Part shown: piece by piece, positions 39,099 through 50,739 of the stretch
Layout of the letters: each line of letters opens with the position of its first letter
Position numbering within the stretch: position 1 is the stretch's first letter
Source: Methanofastidiosum sp.
Lineage (GTDB): Archaea; Methanobacteriota_B; Thermococci; Methanofastidiosales; Methanofastidiosaceae
Length of the DNA: 64,000 nt
Reading direction: 5' to 3'
NCBI GenBank assembly: GCA_039679445.1
Contig: JBDKUY010000026.1
Location: 28,523-92,522, forward strand
Notes under the pieces: model-generated
What the model was told of the DNA's origin: nothing
Databases searched by the model: none
The model's input: only the letters and a program-made list of their open reading frames with translations
Translations under genes and position numbers: made by a program

Positions 39099-39503
39099 TT
39101 ATTCTTCCCCCTCAAACATTTTTTGAACGCTAAGAGTATGATATTTGTTATATAACACAACTGCAAGTGCCAGCATTACTGAGAGTGTAGATGCTCCAAT
39201 AACAATGTTTGTAAGAACTAATGCAAATGGCAACGAGTATGAAGCGTTGCTTGCAAATTCACCAAATTCTAGTAAATGAGAATAATTTGATGGTGTCGCA
39301 GAAGCGTGAAAGTGATGCATTACCTCAGGAATAAATCCTCCAGGCCTATAACCAATGGTAATCAAAACAAGATTTACTCCATCACCAATCAAGTTAGCAC
39401 CAATTATTTTTTTCAGGATGTTGTCCATCATTAATAGTGCCCATAGCCCTGTTACAATCAGTATGCCTGCTGTAAGGAAAGAAGCTACCTGAAATGGTTC
39501 CAT
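39099..39503 (-). CDS. MrpC/NuoK-like small membrane subunit
   Basis: 134 aa and 3 TM with NuoK-like character (ANLIGDGVNLVLIT). Confidence 0.5.
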   Translation of the reverse strand: MEPFQVASFLTAGILIVTGLWALLMMDNILKKIIGANLIGDGVNLVLITIGYRPGGFIPEVMHHFHASATPSNYSHLLEFGEFASNASYSLPFALVLTNIVIGASTLSVMLALAVVLYNKYHTLSVQKMFEGEE

Positions 39504-39746
39504 TTATTCATCCCTCCCCTGTGTCGTTTTGTAGAGTGCTACTATGAAAAGACCGGGAAGTAGTGCTGCACCTAAAATTGCTTGTACCGCAGCAACGTCT
39601 GTAGCAAGTAAGAAATGGAATATTGCTGCCAACGAAAAACTTTCAAAAGTTAAAATAATAATACTCTTGTAAAGATTTTCCTGTATTATCGCCATTAAAG
39701 CGGACAAAGCTACTGCAAATAACAATATATAATCAAACATTATCAT
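39504..39746 (-). CDS. Small membrane subunit (80 aa, MbhD/MrpB-N-like)
   Basis: Two TM helices in operon context. Confidence 0.4.
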   Translation of the reverse strand: MIMFDYILLFAVALSALMAIIQENLYKSIIILTFESFSLAAIFHFLLATDVAAVQAILGAALLPGLFIVALYKTTQGRDE

Positions 39747-40020
39747 CAGCCTCCGTTAAATCTGCCCAAGATATAGAATGGACTGCTAAAGGCATTAGGA
39801 AAAAATGAGCTAAAGCAGCTAAAATTGCAACTGGATTTCCAAGGAAAATAATAACAAGTATGCATACGACATCCATTACACCTAAAATATGAAGTCTTGC
39901 ATATACTATGTTCTTCCTCTGTCCAAATCTGAAAAGACCTAAAGCAACACCTATAAGACCCATTCCCGCTATTAAATAGAAATAAGGAAGTAGTAGTTCC
40001 ATATATGAATATACGTTCAT
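39733..40020 (-). CDS. MrpG/MnhG-like subunit
   Basis: 95 aa with a YARLHILG motif, corresponding to the MnhG RLHAAGK region. Confidence 0.55.
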   Translation of the reverse strand: MNVYSYMELLLPYFYLIAGMGLIGVALGLFRFGQRKNIVYARLHILGVMDVVCILVIIFLGNPVAILAALAHFFLMPLAVHSISWADLTEADDNV

Positions 40021-40349
40021 TCTGCAATCCCCCCTCTAAAGAATCTAGAAATTATCAATGTTCCTACTGGACCGAGTAGAAGTAAATAAATTGCTATATC
40101 AGAAAAATAAGGAATCCCATACATTTTTCCTACAATCATGAAACCCGTCGCAACACCAATTTCGGCAGCACTCGCACCAGCTAGGGAATTACATACCCCC
40201 CTAAAAGTAGTTACTCTGAGACCAGAAATAATAGCAACGCTGAGTCCTATCAGCATCACGTAAACATAATAGTCTTTAAGTTGGAGATAATGACCGACTA
40301 CCAAGATTACAGCTAAAATCAGCACCAATAAAATATTATTTTTGTTCAT
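40017..40349 (-). CDS. MrpF/MnhF-like subunit
   Basis: 110 aa and 3 TM, in the position after MrpE. Confidence 0.45.
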   Translation of the reverse strand: MNKNNILLVLILAVILVVGHYLQLKDYYVYVMLIGLSVAIISGLRVTTFRGVCNSLAGASAAEIGVATGFMIVGKMYGIPYFSDIAIYLLLLGPVGTLIISRFFRGGIAE

Positions 40350-40667
40350 TTAATCCTCCACCATCTTTTTTATCCATCCCTCAAAAGGAATAACATCTTT
40401 TTGAGTTCTTGGAGAAATAACAGCTACAAGTAATTTCTGCTTTTCTGGAAAGACATCAATAGTCAATGTCCCAGGTGTCAAAGTAATACTGTTTGCAAGA
40501 ATTGTCATAGAAACAGGTCTCTTGAGAACTGTATCGATTTCCATAACTACCGGATCTATTTTCCCATCAACACATTGAATAAAAACGTCTCTTGCAGAAA
40601 CAACGATGTAATATACTAAACCTATAAAATAGACAATACCCCAAAATGGTCTTAGAGCTTTACTCAT
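40350..40667 (-). CDS. MrpE/MnhE-like subunit; first gene of the hydrogenase operon
   Basis: 105 aa with an ITLTPGTLTIDV motif typical of MnhE. Confidence 0.6.
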   Translation of the reverse strand: MSKALRPFWGIVYFIGLVYYIVVSARDVFIQCVDGKIDPVVMEIDTVLKRPVSMTILANSITLTPGTLTIDVFPEKQKLLVAVISPRTQKDVIPFEGWIKKMVED

Positions 40668-40699
40668 TTTTTACACCTTCGGAATTTGAGTAAAAGGTT

Positions 40700-40730
40700 T
40701 ATTTATAGTTTATAAATGTTTCGTCAATCG
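40700..40730 (-). promoter_or_regulatory. Candidate archaeal TATA-box region for the hydrogenase operon
   Basis: TTTATAAACTATAAATAAAC on the coding strand lies about 30-60 nt upstream of the MrpE-like ATG at 40667. Confidence 0.3.
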
Positions 40731-40785
40731 TTAATCAGCGATTTTAATTCTAAAAAATTTCTTGATAATTAAACATATGACTAAT

Positions 40786-40805
40786 AAAAACCTTTAAATA
40801 TAGCC
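40786..40805 (+). promoter_or_regulatory. Candidate TATA box for leuS
   Basis: TTTAAATATA lies about 30 nt upstream of the leuS ATG. Confidence 0.3.
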
Positions 40806-40830
40806 TAAAAACGTGTTTTAAATAAGGTAG

Positions 40831-45775: not shown

Positions 45776-46156
45776 TTGAGTATAAGAATAAGGTTTATAA
45801 ATTTAGGCCGTGATTATAATTTAATGAAGAGAATAAGGCCTTTTATCAAGAACAGCACTAAAGTTAGAGTTCTGACAAGATATCTAAATAACAACAGAGA
45901 AGTAAAGGAATACATGGAGAGAGTTAATCCTGTTTTTTATGAGATTTCGTTTCTTGACTGCTATGTTGAAAAAAGCATAAGCGAAGAGGTCAAAAAAACC
46001 TTGGAAGCATACGAAGGCCTTGAAATAACAACTGATGAAATCAAGGACAACAAATATACATTTTACATAGATAGCAAAGAAGGCGAGCCAATTATCTGGA
46101 TGAAAAATGAAGATCAGAAGATTAGGTTCTCCAAGATACCTGTAGAGTTATCATAG
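45776..46156 (+). CDS. Hypothetical protein
   Basis: 126 aa hydrophilic ORF, possibly starting at the Met at 45827. It precedes the MBL hydrolase gene by 10 nt. Confidence 0.4.
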   Translation: MSIRIRFINLGRDYNLMKRIRPFIKNSTKVRVLTRYLNNNREVKEYMERVNPVFYEISFLDCYVEKSISEEVKKTLEAYEGLEITTDEIKDNKYTFYIDSKEGEPIIWMKNEDQKIRFSKIPVELS

Positions 46157-46166
46157 ATGATATAAG

Positions 46167-46928
46167 ATGAATTCAAAGTTTTTAGGATCCGTAAGGTTAC
46201 ATGCACCTTACCACCCTTCTATAGTCATTAAACTTGACAAAATAGAGTTCAGAGTAGATAGTCCATGCGGGGCAAAAAACGAGAACAAGGTATATCTTTT
46301 AACGCATTTTCACTTTGACCATGTTAGATCATGCATGGCGGGTGGTGCAGACTTTCTAAGCCTTTCTGAAAATCCAATAAAAATCTATGCGCCTTACGAT
46401 GACAGAAAAGAGTATGGTGAAAATGAGAATGTCTTTGATATTCATTCTAAGATGATTAACTTCCACTCTAAAGGAAGAAGAAAACTTGTTCCAATTCAGG
46501 AAAATGAGAATCTTCGATTTAATGGAACTACTATTGTCCCTGTCCCCTTGAAGCATACGGTGCCTAACTTTGGTTATTATATCAATAATCCAGAAACAAG
46601 TATCCTCGTCACAGGTGACTGGGAAGGGTCAAATTACAAGAACAGGCAAAAGATAATTTCTTTGGCACCAAGAGTATTGGTCACAGAGTGCAGATATTTT
46701 TTTGAAGAGGAAATAGAGATTGCTGAGGAAAGAATGCATGCTCATGTTGAAGATGTTCTTGATCTAAAAGAAGAATTAGATAATACGATGATTGTCTTGA
46801 CTCACGTCTCCCATAGATACCGCGACCTAGAAAATATTGTCAAATTAACAAAAGAAAAGGACTTGATTCTAGCAAAGAACATATCGTTTAACAACACCGG
46901 TTACCGTATCAGGGAACGATTCAAATAA
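46167..46928 (+). CDS. MBL-fold metallo-hydrolase
   Basis: 253 aa with an LLTHFHFDH (HxHxDH) motif. Confidence 0.75.
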   Translation: MNSKFLGSVRLHAPYHPSIVIKLDKIEFRVDSPCGAKNENKVYLLTHFHFDHVRSCMAGGADFLSLSENPIKIYAPYDDRKEYGENENVFDIHSKMINFHSKGRRKLVPIQENENLRFNGTTIVPVPLKHTVPNFGYYINNPETSILVTGDWEGSNYKNRQKIISLAPRVLVTECRYFFEEEIEIAEERMHAHVEDVLDLKEELDNTMIVLTHVSHRYRDLENIVKLTKEKDLILAKNISFNNTGYRIRERFK

Positions 46929-47010
46929 TTAGTATAATCTATAAAGAATATTTATTTTTCTAGATATTTGATAACAGTAAAATTTAAATAAAGTTAATTG
47001 AATAGATAAT

Positions 47011-47297
47011 GTTGCACAGGTCGAAACTTCGCTGGTAACAAAGTCTTTCATTCCTTGCATCTGGGCCGCTTAGGCGGATTTGAGTGTCACGCTCCACCCG
47101 CATACAAGGCTCTTGGACAAGGGTATTTCCGGGATGGCTAAGTCTTATCGGAAAATGTTTGAGTCACACTTGAACTTACCCGGTCCATGACATTGAAAAA
47201 ATGTCTCTATCGGACACCGAAAGGCAATAGCCGCTTCGAGAAGTCGAAGCATCCGGCTATGAAAGACCTACTCCTCCGAAGCGACAAACTGTGCATC
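47011..47297 (+). ncRNA. Structured non-coding RNA candidate (about 285 nt), possibly reduced RNase P RNA, or SRP RNA; identity unresolved
   Basis: About 50% GC over a roughly 290-nt stretch, against AT-rich surroundings (33 of 60 G+C in the line 47041-47100). There is no ORF. A terminal helix pairs 47013-47031 (TGCACAG-GTCG-CTTCG) with 47277-47295 (CGAAG-CGAC-CTGTGCA). A long-range 9-bp helix pairs GTCTTTCAT (47043-47051) with ATGAAAGAC (47259-47267). There are several internal hairpins, including one with a GAAG tetraloop. The strand assignment is tentative. Confidence 0.5.
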
Positions 47298-47572
47298 TTT
47301 TTCTTTTTGAATTAAAGTTTTGATTATTATCGTAATATATAGATATTTAGTAAAATCATTCAGTTTAACTTAATAAACTATGATTGCTATTTTATTATAA
47401 ATCCTTGGAAGTAAATCTCATTTTCAAGGGAGTTACTATTTTTTAGGGCCAGAAATAAGATTTCCATAGGAGTATATTTTCGAGAAAAGACAATCAAAAA
47501 TATCACTATTTCCAAAGATTTATAACTTTAAATCCTTAATAACAGTTAAAATAAAAATATTCTAAGGGATGT

Positions 47573-49435
47573 TTGGGGATGTTTTATTTTAGGTGTGTGG
47601 TGTGTATAATATTTGTTTCGTTAGTTTTTATTTCTGGAATACAACCACTCCAATCGCAAGAGGAAAATGTCATAAGAGTTGGAATCTATGAGGATAAACC
47701 ACTTATTTTTATAGATGAACAGGACAACGTGAAAGGAGTTTATGCAGATATATTGAATTACATTGTAGAAAAAGAAGGCTGGACTATACAATATCGTTAT
47801 GGAAGTTTGGATGATTGCTTAACTTGGATAAAAAATAAAGAAATAGATGTGCTTGTGGCAGTCACATCATCTCCAGAAAGAGGAGAAATTGCTGAGTTTT
47901 CAAAGGAAAGTGTTTTTTCCAACTGGGGAGAAGTTTATTGTAGAAATAATCTAGAAGTAGATTCCTTTCTAGATTTCGAAGGTTTGAGAGTTGCAGTTGT
48001 TAAGAAGGATATTTACTATATTGGGCCTAACGGAATAAAAAATTTGATGGAGCGATTTGGGATAAACTGTTTTTTTGTAGAGGTCGATAATTATTCGGAA
48101 GTTATTGAAGCCTTAGAAAGTGACAAAGCGGATGTAGGAATTGTTACTAGGCTATACGAAACAGAGATAGTAAGTACTCCAAAAATTAAATCGACTTCAA
48201 TTGTTTTTAATCCAATAAAACTTCTATTTGCATTTCCAAAAGGCAATCCGAATAATGCCTATCTAATAGAAACTATTGATTCGGAACTAAAAAAGTTAAA
48301 GAGCGATCCAAACTCGATATATTATTCAAGCATAAACAACTATTTGGGCGGGGAAATAGGTAAAGTGGTAGTTGAAGTTTTTCCATATTGGGCAAAAGAT
48401 GTTTTTCTCATTGTACTTGGAAGTGTTATTCTATTGTCAATAGGCGGTTTGATTTTAAAATGGCAGGTAAAGGGAAAATCCCAGGAAATATGTAAAAGTG
48501 AAGATAAGTTCAGAAGTTACGTGGAAAACGCTCCTGAAGGCATATTCATAGTAGATGAAAAAGGAAAGTATGTTGATGTTAACGACGCTGCTTGCGAAAC
48601 GACTGGATACACTAGAGAAGAACTTCTTAAAATGAATTTAATTGATCTAATACCTCTTGATGATAGAGAAAATGCAGCAAAGTCATTTGCAAGTGTCATA
48701 GAGAAGGGCAAAAATTCTGCTGAAACTTCCTTTATTAAAAAAGGGGGCGAAAAAAGATACTGGATAGTCAACGCCGTAAAATTATCAGACGGCAGATTTT
48801 TAGGATTTACTAAAGATATTACCGAGAGAAAAAATGCCGAACTTGATTTAATACAAAATGAAAAGAAATACCGCACACTGTTTGAAGACTCAATAAATCC
48901 GATATGGACGACAAGTTATGATGGCACTATCCTTGATACAAATCAAGCAGCGGCGGAGCTTCTTGGATATTCCAAAGAAGAATTGATTGGGTCAAGTGTA
49001 TATGGGCTTTATGTCGACCCTGACATGAGGAAACAATTAATAGCGGAGATAAAAGAGAAAGGATTTGCCAAGGATTTCTTGGCCCACTGGAAGACAAAGG
49101 ATGGACGGCAGGTAGACCTTTTATTTAACTTCACCTTATGGAAAGACAACGAAGGTAATGTTGTGGGATATAGGGGAATAGCACATGACATGACTCTCCA
49201 TTATAGATCTGAAAAGCAACTAGATGAAAACTTAGAATACTTTGCCCACCTAATAGATCACATAAGAAATCCTTTGGCAATTCTCAGCGCTTTCGTACAG
49301 ATAAAAGTCGACGATGAAAAAACAAAGGAAGTAGTCATAAGGCAGGTGAATAGAATTGAAGAGCTATTGAAGCAGTTGGACCAAGGATGGATGGATACAG
49401 AGGATACTAGAAAGTTTCTTAAGAGACATATGTAA
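47573..49435 (+). CDS. Sensor protein: periplasmic solute-binding (SBP3-like) domain, TM, two PAS domains and a HisKA-like phosphoacceptor, with no HATPase_c domain
   Basis: 620 aa with a signal/TM N-terminus and SBP-like sequence. There are two PAS regions. The C-terminal H-box is LIDHIRNPLAIL, followed by only about 50 aa before the stop. Downstream is an AT-rich intergenic region. Confidence 0.75.
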   Translation: MGMFYFRCVVCIIFVSLVFISGIQPLQSQEENVIRVGIYEDKPLIFIDEQDNVKGVYADILNYIVEKEGWTIQYRYGSLDDCLTWIKNKEIDVLVAVTSSPERGEIAEFSKESVFSNWGEVYCRNNLEVDSFLDFEGLRVAVVKKDIYYIGPNGIKNLMERFGINCFFVEVDNYSEVIEALESDKADVGIVTRLYETEIVSTPKIKSTSIVFNPIKLLFAFPKGNPNNAYLIETIDSELKKLKSDPNSIYYSSINNYLGGEIGKVVVEVFPYWAKDVFLIVLGSVILLSIGGLILKWQVKGKSQEICKSEDKFRSYVENAPEGIFIVDEKGKYVDVNDAACETTGYTREELLKMNLIDLIPLDDRENAAKSFASVIEKGKNSAETSFIKKGGEKRYWIVNAVKLSDGRFLGFTKDITERKNAELDLIQNEKKYRTLFEDSINPIWTTSYDGTILDTNQAAAELLGYSKEELIGSSVYGLYVDPDMRKQLIAEIKEKGFAKDFLAHWKTKDGRQVDLLFNFTLWKDNEGNVVGYRGIAHDMTLHYRSEKQLDENLEYFAHLIDHIRNPLAILSAFVQIKVDDEKTKEVVIRQVNRIEELLKQLDQGWMDTEDTRKFLKRHM

Positions 49436-49726: not shown

Positions 49727-50209
49727 ATGTTTCCAAATATTATACTACTATGGATTGCTGGAGCAATTATAGTTTTAATATCCTATTATTTTGATAAGGA
49801 AAAAACAAGGCAAGGAGTTAAAAAAGGGGTAAAAATCTTCAAGGGCCTGCTCTCACCATTTGTTAACATTATGATACTGGCAAGCTTCATTTTGGTAGTA
49901 GTTCCGCCTGAGATGATAGAGCGTTATCTTGGCGGCGAATCAGGATTCTTTGGGATAACTCTCTCTGCAATTATAGGTTCGATTACATTGATCCCTGCGT
50001 TTATAGTATACCCCCTAGCTTCAGAACTATTAGAGAGGGGGGCTTCTTACATGGTGATTGCAACCTTTATTACAACGCTTCTCATGGTAGGCGTTGTCAC
50101 ATATCCTCTAGAGAGCAAATATTTTGGAAAAAAAGTTGCTCTTGTTAGAAATGTACTCAATTTCTTTGCAGCCATTCTTATTGGATTACTAATAGGGGTG
50201 ATAATGTGA
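49727..50209 (+). CDS. Permease half-transporter A (predicted-permease/DUF318-like)
   Basis: 160 aa and 4 TM with a YLGGESGFFGITLSAIIGS motif. Its stop overlaps the next start (ATGTGA context). Confidence 0.55.
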   Translation: MFPNIILLWIAGAIIVLISYYFDKEKTRQGVKKGVKIFKGLLSPFVNIMILASFILVVVPPEMIERYLGGESGFFGITLSAIIGSITLIPAFIVYPLASELLERGASYMVIATFITTLLMVGVVTYPLESKYFGKKVALVRNVLNFFAAILIGLLIGVIM

Positions 50210-50739
50210 ATAATAAGTATCTGAAAGAATATGGGTTCATTTTAGTTTTCATTATTTTTGGGCTAGTGTCTTACTTCTATAGCTTTACATTTGGAGTCAA
50301 AGCTTCAAAAACATTCTTGAACATGTTCATAGAGATGATTTCTTTTATCCCTATAGTATTCATCCTAGTAGGACTACTGGATGCGTGGATACCTAAAAAG
50401 AAATTTGAAAAGTATATGGGGCCTGAATCTGGATTAAAAGGAACTTTGCTTTCAGTAATATTCTCAATGTTTCAGGCCGGCCCGCTTTATGGTGCATTTC
50501 CAATAGTATATATCCTTTACAAAAAGGGCGCTTCAATAAAAAACATATTCATATTTCTTGGGTGCTTCTCATCTCTCAAGATACCAATGCTAACAATTGA
50601 GACCGGTTATCTTGGATTAGAATTTACCCTTGCAAGGACAGCAATTACCGTGCCATTGTTCATAGCAATCGGCTACTTAATGGATTATTATCTAAAAGGT
50701 AAAGATTTCAAGATTACTGACCCTACAGAAGCCCAATAA
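50206..50739 (+). CDS. Permease half-transporter B (homologous to A)
   Basis: 177 aa and 4-5 TM with a YMGPESGLKGTLLSVIFS motif paralogous to protein A. Confidence 0.55.
   Translation: MNNKYLKEYGFILVFIIFGLVSYFYSFTFGVKASKTFLNMFIEMISFIPIVFILVGLLDAWIPKKKFEKYMGPESGLKGTLLSVIFSMFQAGPLYGAFPIVYILYKKGASIKNIFIFLGCFSSLKIPMLTIETGYLGLEFTLARTAITVPLFIAIGYLMDYYLKGKDFKITDPTEAQ

Follow-up and report, generated by a model that had tools for sequence, protein, structure and literature searches.

A stand-alone structured RNA gene of Methanofastidiosum with a splicing endonuclease motif in its closing stem and a predicted circular product

Introduction

Which RNA is encoded by a GC-rich island without open reading frames (ORFs) in the intergenic DNA of an archaeon, and what is the meaning of the long bulged helix that joins its two ends? 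This question is raised by positions 47011-47297 of a 64,000-nucleotide (nt) stretch of a contig from Methanofastidiosum sp., an uncultured methanogen of the order Methanofastidiosales (JBDKUY010000026.1, assembly GCA_039679445.1), and this whole stretch is called here the window. In this paper we looked at the RNA of this island and at its homologues. The reading that we favor, with reasonable though limited confidence, is that of a stand-alone non-coding RNA (ncRNA) that would be excised at a motif of the type bulge–helix–bulge (BHB) and circularized by RtcB, and that is not an RNase P RNA, a signal recognition particle (SRP) RNA or a member of any Rfam family. Judging by the motif in its closing stem, the RNA is probably cut out of its transcript and joined into a circle of 262 nt. 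A bolder suggestion, which we hold only tentatively, is that this gene is dedicated to a large circular structured RNA of a new class, made via the tRNA-splicing machinery and unrelated to tRNA, rRNA, SRP RNA or RNase P RNA, which may serve as a lineage-specific ribonucleoprotein core or as a ribozyme.

The GC content of the window is 35.5% overall and that of the island (287 nt) is 49.1%, and the flanks are AT-rich, with 13% GC in the 82 nt upstream of the RNA and 23% in the 275 nt downstream. An earlier sequence-only reading had singled out this island and described much of it accurately. Its count of 33 G+C in the 60 nt of 47041-47100 is exact, and the 9-bp long-range helix (47043-47051 with 47259-47267), the GAAG-capped hairpin (47233-47250, loop 47240-47243), AAAGUC at 47040 and CCGGCUAU at 47253 are all found in the sequence. 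The island is also free of ORFs, as had been said: the + strand has none of more than 37 codons, even when it is read through around the circle, and no rolling-circle ORFs. Its description as a structured RNA agrees with a minimum free energy (MFE) of -106.6 kcal/mol for the + strand (z = -5.25), which none of 200 dinucleotide shuffles reaches. The identities that were proposed, RNase P RNA or archaeal SRP RNA, including reduced or divergent versions, find no Rfam match at E <= 10; it is the fallback of an unclassified RNA that holds, with no match in Rfam and a conserved structure.

The closing stem is a canonical bulge–helix–bulge

The most informative feature of the RNA is the BHB in its closing stem. 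The earlier reading had the 7+4+5 Watson–Crick pairs of this stem (47013-47031 with 47277-47295) and the two AAA bulges right, but missed that together they have the nature of a splicing endonuclease BHB. The motif known as hBHBh' is a 4-bp helix between two 3-nt bulges plus flanking helices (PMC7714728; PMC4731332), and every part of this definition is found in the stem: the centre has exactly 4 bp, each strand carries one 3-nt bulge, and the helices on either side have 7 and 5 bp, where at least 2 bp are called for. The parts of the motif, with the sites at which the tRNA splicing endonuclease EndA is predicted to cut and the RNA that would be released, are as follows.

47013-47019, + strand: 5' strand UGCACAG of the BHB outer helix h, with seven Watson–Crick pairs to 47289-47295
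47020-47023, + strand: 5' strand GUCG of the BHB central helix H, pairing with CGAC at 47282-47285
47024-47026, + strand: 5' bulge AAA of the BHB, a predicted EndA cleavage site, invariant in 22 sequences
47027-47031, + strand: 5' strand CUUCG of the BHB inner helix h', pairing with CGAAG at 47277-47281
47277-47295, + strand: 3' side of the BHB, with inner CGAAG (47277-47281), central CGAC (47282-47285), bulge AAA (47286-47288) and outer CUGUGCA (47289-47295)
47026-47287, + strand: predicted excised RNA and circle, 262 nt between the bulges

Each bulge sits 3' of its strand of the central helix, whilst the reverse complement has the wrong geometry; this rule for the side of the bulge was derived from the numbering of the pre-tRNA intron at 37/38. 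A strict scan of both strands of the 64 kb for 7+4+5 Watson–Crick pairs, with a spacing of 40-700 nt, finds this stem as its sole match, and none is found in 12 block shuffles. This uniqueness depends on the stringency, as a looser 5+4+4 scan gives 5 matches against 3.5 expected, and a first scan of 5+4+4 bp that allowed G-U pairs gave ~330 chance matches per shuffle and was uninformative. The cofold of the two strands is exactly the hBHBh' at -17.8 kcal/mol, which is more stable than the validated Haloferax substrates (-9.6 to -14.2 kcal/mol; PMC7714728).

The motif is intact in all 22 distinct sequences of the RNA that were collected (see below). The outer helix (mean pair probability 0.96) shows one change from G-C to G-U and one mismatch, the central 4-bp helix is kept in 22/22 with one pair that is G-C in 19 and G-U in 3, and the last pair of h' forms a compensatory series (G-C in 16, G-U in 5 and A-U in 1). 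Both AAA bulges are invariant except for one AUA.

It was reported that the splicing endonuclease of Haloferax, a euryarchaeon, strictly needs hBHBh' and that it also cuts non-tRNA substrates (PMC7714728). Splicing endonucleases also act on precursors of rRNA, on an mRNA leader and on the precursor of an SRP RNA, and what they excise is circularized, presumably by RtcB (PMC7714728; PMC4731332); for a stand-alone Thermoproteus gene, circularization of an ncRNA at a BHB was shown experimentally (PMC4731332). Based on these precedents a possible route can be suggested. Transcription would start at the gene's own promoter, with its transcription factor B recognition element (BRE) and TATA box, at ~47011-47014 and stop at the oligo-T of 47298-47308, as conservation and spacing suggest. 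The leader and trailer would then pair into the hBHBh', a pairing that is visible in the sequence and conserved, EndA would cut within both AAA bulges, and the 262-nt RNA released in this way (47026-47287) would be closed by RtcB to give a covalent circle, on the model of tRNA introns, pre-rRNAs and the SRP RNA of Thermoproteus; the leader–trailer by-product of ~30 nt would be ligated or degraded. Because both bulges are AAA and cleavage is symmetric, the sequence of the predicted circle is independent of the exact cut position. The circle would fold into a stem with the invariant UAACAAA/CUACU loop and the 9-bp helix, which opens into a multi-arm junction. When folded as a circle the RNA keeps the same helices at -86.7 kcal/mol, and the 7-nt loop CGACAAA closes off the stem. 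The predicted back-splice junction is CCTCCGAAGCGACAA joined to ACTTCGCTGGTAACA and the predicted leader–trailer junction is GTTGCACAGGTCGAA joined to ACTGTGCATCTTTTT; neither the 651 kb of genomic DNA that were compared nor IMG/VR contains AGCGACAAACTTCGCT, the 16-mer of the back-splice junction.

It could be argued that the RNA is linear, either a primary transcript of ~290 nt or a linear 262-mer, with a stem that is left unprocessed or is cut without ligation. Long bulged closing stems are common in structured RNAs, this one is nearly invariant (only 3 of 16 pairs vary), and the cleavage and the circles are deduced from the sequence alone, a point that counts against circularization as well as for the linear RNA. 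Yet the stem is an exact hBHBh', with 4 bp, 3+3-nt bulges on the correct sides and strong flanks, unique in the window at the 7+4+5 stringency and more stable than proven substrates of an enzyme that also cuts precursors of rRNA, mRNA and SRP RNA. Since EndA recognizes the motif regardless of the body of the RNA, a canonical BHB that lies exposed would hardly be left uncut. We regard a linear product as unlikely.

Gene limits, strand and coding potential

The limits of the gene can be drawn from a promoter on one side and a T-run on the other:

46963-46992, + strand: promoter block ATATTTGATAAYAGWAAAWTTTAAATAAA, nearly invariant in 7 divergent copies
46983-46990, + strand: TATA box TTTAAATA, preceded by an A-rich BRE-like stretch and starting 30 nt before the first helix base
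47011-47308, + strand: predicted primary transcript, from a start at ~47011-47014 to the oligo-T, with ends placed by conservation and spacing
47298-47308, + strand: oligo-T stop TTTTTCTTTTT, a T-run that follows the outer helix in 22/22 sequences

The distance between the TATA box and the first helix base is that of archaeal promoters, and oligo-T is where archaeal RNA polymerase terminates. In the 7 divergent copies the spacer of 15-20 nt between the promoter block and the RNA varies, and in an alignment with flanks the conservation runs from ~47009 to the T-run in all copies, with similarity vanishing beyond. About 100 nt past the T-run, in the non-conserved spacer, there is an 11-bp AT-rich hairpin with a T-rich tail (47402-47430, + strand). 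It is the sole terminator-like match of a consensus scan in 46800-47700, is absent in relatives and is probably incidental.

With regard to the strand, G-U pairs alternate with A-U or G-C pairs (alignment columns 56/103 and 154/166), which would be A·C mismatches on the - strand. Because this alternation, the geometry of the BHB, the promoter and the T-run all agree, the RNA can be placed on the + strand; the - strand folds with z = -3.94 as against -5.25 for the + strand. The substitutions have no 3-periodicity, and the variable columns fall in equal measure on the three codon phases. By these features of its sequence the RNA is an independent + strand gene, which is predicted to be separately transcribed.

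Distribution and conservation

The RNA has a fixed place behind two protein genes:

45824-46156, + strand: ORFan of 110 aa, in an operon with the next gene (10-nt gap)
46167-46928, + strand: metallo-beta-lactamase (MBL)-fold protein of 253 aa (PF12706), immediately 5' of the RNA in every genome

It lies directly 3' of the MBL gene in 12/12 contigs that were first compared and in 11/11 species-level Methanofastidiosum genomes of the GTDB set, in one of which the copy is broken by the contig end. A pattern scan added 15 metagenome contigs, which brings the total to 38 copies with 22 distinct sequences and a mean column identity of 94%. The metagenome scan yielded copies of the same genus only, hence there is no deep covariation, and beside the MBL orthologue in other Methanofastidiosia or Theionarchaea neither the RNA nor an analogous BHB element was found. 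The copies are 83-95% identical to that of the window, a figure that is an underestimate since it is limited to ~96% by padding; the values are 76-95% for the MBL gene and 15-63% for the next 100 nt downstream of the RNA. In conservation the RNA equals or exceeds the flanking coding DNA. The conserved unit is made of the ORFan, the MBL gene and the RNA, and the gene downstream varies by species.

This arrangement bears on a further option, that of a cis-acting element, which would belong either to the MBL gene, as a 3' untranslated region (UTR) or terminator, or to the gene downstream, as a leader or riboswitch. The RNA always lies 83 nt past the stop codon of the MBL gene, as such an element might. 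However, a conserved promoter lies between the MBL gene and the RNA, the RNA has its own T-run, and the gene that would be controlled downstream is in turn a PAS sensor, ArsP, DUF1699, a PNPOx-like or a hypothetical protein, and is sometimes convergent. Among the explanations that we considered this one is the least credible.

Another explanation that has to be weighed is a domesticated or orphan archaeal intron, which would persist as a stable circle in a minimal host transcript and have little or no cellular function. The layout is formally exon–BHB–intron–BHB–exon with tiny exons, and introns of archaeal rRNA and tRNA do accumulate as stable circles. Against this stand the single copy at a fixed position in all 11 species with its own conserved promoter, the purifying selection on loops as well as on helices, and the lack of a homing endonuclease ORF and of copies in viral contigs, so that we hold an orphan intron to be quite unlikely. 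A viral or mobile origin was also considered and was rejected, as IMG/VR contains neither copies of the RNA nor its back-splice junction.

Fold and covariation support

How well is the interior of the RNA defined? The parts of the fold inside the BHB are the following:

47036-47042, + strand: internal-loop strand UAACAAA, invariant in 22 sequences, facing CUACU at 47268-47272
47043-47051, + strand: 5' strand GUCUUUCAU of the 9-bp helix, pairing with 47259-47267 (AUGAAAGAC), mean pair probability 0.91
47063-47112, + strand: arm II, stacked GGGCC/GGCUC, GCGG/CCGC and GAGU/GCUC helices with internal loops, pair probability 0.74-0.82
47114-47187, + strand: arm III, a stem of UGGAC/GUCCA and GGGU/ACCC followed by two hairpins
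47189-47205, + strand: arm IV hairpin GACAUU-GAAAAA-AUGUC, mean pair probability 0.97
47206-47232, + strand: junction with the invariant ACCGAAAG, which may fold locally into mini-hairpins, pair with 47136-47151 in a long-range helix or take part in a pseudoknot
47233-47250, + strand: arm V hairpin GCUUCGA-GAAG-UCGAAGC with a GNAR-type tetraloop, mean pair probability 0.95

Covariation in orthologous regions had been named as a check of the structure, and in the 22 distinct homologues the pairing is kept: in the ensemble-robust helices 98.9% of 1911 pair cells are standard pairs, and when the partners are slid by 1-3 columns only 32-46% are. Four pairs change on both sides, a value that is reached by 5 of 500 shuffles; they lie in the inner stem (G-C/G-U/A-U), in arm II, in the variable hairpin and in the GAAG hairpin. 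Arm II shows a change from G-U to A-U in 7 sequences and one from G-C to U-A on both sides in 3, and in arm V a C-G pair is replaced by U-A on both sides in one sequence (L030). Variation within the RNA is highest in the second hairpin of arm III (47157-47175), where 6 of the 8 pairs change yet stay paired, one of them on both sides. The 9-bp helix is invariant, so covariation speaks neither for nor against its pairing.

The robust core of the fold consists of the closing stem with two G-C pairs (GG/CC, 47034-47035 with 47273-47274) that flank the UAACAAA loop, the invariant internal loop, the 9-bp helix, arm II, the base of arm III with its variable hairpin, hairpin IV and the GAAG hairpin V. 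Within it the stem, the internal loop and the 9-bp helix are a supported core. For about 47126-47151 and 47206-47258 the MFE of the single sequence gives local hairpins, whereas RNAalifold gives a long-range helix of 47136-47151 with 47217-47232 plus CCGG/CCGG, and the first hairpin of arm III is rivalled by an alternative long-range pairing. The A/G polymorphism at 47224 (12 against 10 sequences) agrees with a U as the long-range partner and disrupts the GGC/GCC hairpin of the local fold. A pseudoknot between 47136-47146 and 47221-47232 is compatible with the polymorphisms, but its complementarity is at the level of chance (148 of 500 shuffles), and such a loop–junction pseudoknot is tentative.

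Relation to RNase P RNA, SRP RNA and Rfam families

All 4227 families of Rfam 15 were searched on both strands, with lax filters on an isolated 521-nt region around the RNA. In the 64-kb window the only matches are two tRNAs, and the RNA itself has none at gathering score or at E <= 10. This was the check that the sequence-only reading had named for its two candidate identities, and on the 521-nt region it went against both of them: the RNase P models RF00373, RF02357, RF00010, RF00011 and RF00009 give no match at E <= 10 on either strand, and neither do RF01857 and the other SRP models, even locally. The same covariance search scores E. coli rnpB at 319.7 bits. These negatives also cover permuted genes, because a permutation breaks at most one helix and the local alignment of Infernal scores intact sub-domains. 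The absence of the canonical P4 sequences and of the SRP helix-8 motif, which had been noticed by eye, extends to every rotation of the circle.

Can the RNA still be a highly divergent, possibly reduced RNase P RNA? It shares with archaeal RNase P RNA (RF00373, RF02357) its size, a closing stem from end to end, an A-rich joiner followed by GUC (AAAGUC at the start of the long-range helix) and a multi-domain fold, which in the RNAalifold model nests loosely like P4-P5-S-domain. Type M RNase P RNAs are close in size to 262 nt, and archaeal RNase P RNA is often circularized. In ~440 kb (the window and ~380 kb of related loci), a small part of a genome, no canonical RNase P RNA or SRP RNA was found at gathering score. 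However, what defines the family is missing. From the P4 core of conserved regions CR-I (GNGGAAAGUCC) and CR-V (ACANAA..GGCUUA) only AAAGUC is present, no ACANAA...GGYU occurs in any rotation of the circle, and the 13-15-mer CR-I and CR-V blocks are not found even with 3 mismatches; CCGGCUAU, which had been taken as an echo of CR-V, is more simply explained by a local helix, or an alternative one, of which it forms a strand. Nor are the other conserved blocks (CR-II, CR-III and CR-IV) found: of 9 invariant blocks of RF00010 not one is present, the reference being here the bacterial type A consensus and not an archaeal one. A Smith–Waterman alignment with E. coli rnpB and the RF00010 consensus scores 21, which is reached by 33 of 300 shuffles, and the best local alignment with E. 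coli rnpB is CTCCACCCG..CAAGGC. A likeness of CUCCACCCG...CAAGGC to the 3' strands of E. coli P11/P7/P5 was rejected as statistically insignificant and also as structurally not equivalent, the string being part of different helices in the two RNAs. The sister lineage by GTDB placement, the Thermococcales, has an ordinary type A RNase P RNA, and because of this the loss of the universal core in one genus is implausible. An RNase P identity is very improbable.

The same holds, to a slightly greater extent, for a permuted or divergent SRP RNA of the kind known from Thermoproteus. There is a precedent for a circular SRP RNA that is processed at a BHB and escaped annotation, and archaeal SRP (7S) RNA (RF01857) is alike in size, in its paired termini and in having one GNAR hairpin: the GAAG-capped 7-bp hairpin (47233-47250) could be helix 6, although this feature is not specific to SRP RNA. 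The SRP54 motif of helix 8, a near-universal anchor (Plagens et al.; PMC4731332), is absent in its strict form (AGG..GNAR..AGCA) in all rotations. A relaxed match, GAAG UCGA AGCA, was discarded, as it lies in a fully Watson–Crick-paired hairpin without a symmetric loop. The loop that ligation would restore is the 7-nt CGACAAA and not a GNAR tetraloop, and the fold has several arms around a junction where SRP RNA has its rod-like helix 5. Together with the lack of any covariance-model signal, local matches at E <= 10 included, this leaves an SRP identity hardly probable.

Comparison with known systems and possible function

The closest known system is the SRP RNA of Thermoproteus tenax and T. 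uzoniensis (Plagens et al., 2015; PMC4731332). It is likewise a stand-alone ncRNA gene with its own TATA promoter and a BHB formed by leader and trailer, from which the endonuclease and RtcB are proposed to release a circle of ~260-310 nt, and it likewise escaped standard annotation. Unlike the RNA described here, it is a recognizable SRP RNA (helix 8 and helix 6, with shown binding of SRP19 and SRP54) encoded by a circularly permuted gene, and its BHB, possibly a relaxed one, is the target of a heterotetrameric crenarchaeal enzyme. In Methanofastidiosum the BHB is strictly canonical and the host euryarchaeal, there is no SRP motif and no sign of permutation, and the circular product is a prediction.

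The geometry of 4 bp and 3-nt bulges is identical in archaeal tRNA introns and in the 16S/23S pre-rRNA stems, where the excised part is circularized, and some excised tRNA introns are functional, e.g., the box C/D sRNA in the tRNA-Trp intron. In these cases either the flanks or the body are known RNAs, whereas in Methanofastidiosum a leader and a trailer of ~14 nt enclose a body that belongs to no known family. The 5' UTR intron of Haloferax volcanii HVO_1309 (Schwarz et al., 2020; PMC7714728) is another substrate that is neither tRNA nor rRNA; it was found by its motif and by circular RNA sequencing and was cut in vitro by the splicing endonuclease (PMC7714728). It differs in being a 47-nt piece of an mRNA leader and not a large conserved structured RNA gene.

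In the literature searched no description of such an RNA was found, and the Thermoproteus SRP RNA was the sole comparable stand-alone gene. The mRNA substrate of the archaeal splicing endonuclease is cbf5. Beyond tRNA and rRNA, the endonuclease substrates that were found are one SRP RNA, one mRNA and one 5' UTR (PMC7714728; PMC4731332). BHB-dependent circular RNAs are known, and what appears to be new is the unclassified cargo of this one. If our reading is true, archaea use the tRNA-splicing machinery to make circular functional RNAs from dedicated genes, beyond repairing permuted ones, and on the bolder suggestion made at the outset this would be the first stand-alone, non-permuted ncRNA family in archaea that is circular by design. 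It would add a large unclassified RNA to a little-known methanogen lineage that is common in anaerobic digesters, and a new RNA family that current covariance-model libraries have overlooked.

What such a circle might do is a matter of guesswork. Our guess is a trans-acting, protein-bound structural RNA, in which circularity would shield it from exonucleases; it is drawn from the loops and junctions, which are as invariant as the helices. This invariance of the loops spans species in which the DNA of the neighboring genes is up to 24% different, and the constraint looks more like that of dense tertiary and protein contacts than like that of a simple antisense regulator. As a partner protein, the adjacent 110-aa ORFan is a speculative candidate, and its range is as narrow as that of the RNA: its homologues form only 8 clusters, which are at least 86% identical and come without exception from Methanofastidiosum.

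Several points weigh against the reading of a stand-alone circular RNA. All of the homologues come from one genus at 94% identity, which leaves low power for covariation (the 4 double changes), and their kinship inflates the shuffle controls. The interior fold differs between the single-sequence MFE, RNAalifold and the pseudoknot model, and the divergent sequences have MFEs of their own that are 13-22 kcal/mol better than either consensus fold. For canonical RNase P and SRP genes elsewhere in the genus, only the ~440 kb mentioned above were scanned. The proposed function is a guess, and for the candidate partner the AlphaFold model, with a mean pLDDT of 50, is unusable.

Neighboring genes and related loci

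The 110-aa ORFan has no Pfam or NCBIfam match. The MBL protein scores far below the cut-offs of the PhnP and RNase Z models, with E = 2e-9 for PDB 3g1p (PhnP), and it appears to be distantly related to both. Its orthologues, 79-98% identical, are found in metagenome-assembled genomes named Methanofastidiosum or "uncultured Thermococci", and its next relatives, ~40% identical, are in Theionarchaea and other Methanofastidiosia. Genes nearby encode an archaeal-type LeuRS, a MarC-family protein and an MgtE transporter. Downstream of the RNA the window has a sensor with periplasmic-binding, PAS and HisKA domains (47573-49435, + strand), while at other loci (L001, L005, L008 and L010) an ArsP permease pair, DUF1699, a PNPOx-like or a hypothetical protein follows; the ArsP pair is in this window at 49727-50739. 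Because the downstream gene differs between species, rearrangement breakpoints seem to recur just 3' of the terminator of the RNA. Another stretch without long ORFs, 1.7 kb at 39099-40830, turned out to be an ordinary minus-strand operon of small membrane proteins.

In relatives at the level of Theionarchaea the MBL orthologue is followed, on the same strand, by a different conserved RNA of ~112 nt in six loci (all + strand):

L017:5893-6012
L020:5894-6013
L022:5949-6068
L040:6872-6991
L042:6873-6990
L043:6873-6990

This RNA has no BHB and no Rfam match (the best, at E = 0.2, is spurious). The idea that it is a reduced homologue was dropped, as a search with its covariance model R1 does not pick up the Methanofastidiosum RNA. 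At these loci a terminator-like hairpin comes first, followed by a conserved promoter-like GAACCGAAA..TTTATATA and then by the RNA itself. The RNA is closed by the stem GGSYCUGU/RCAGRSCC, and it further has a GGAG/CUCC helix and a 4-way junction that carries two hairpins capped by GAAA. With compensatory changes in 12 of 34 pairs among the 6 sequences, this would seem to be a second family of unclassified RNA, located at the same place in the genome.

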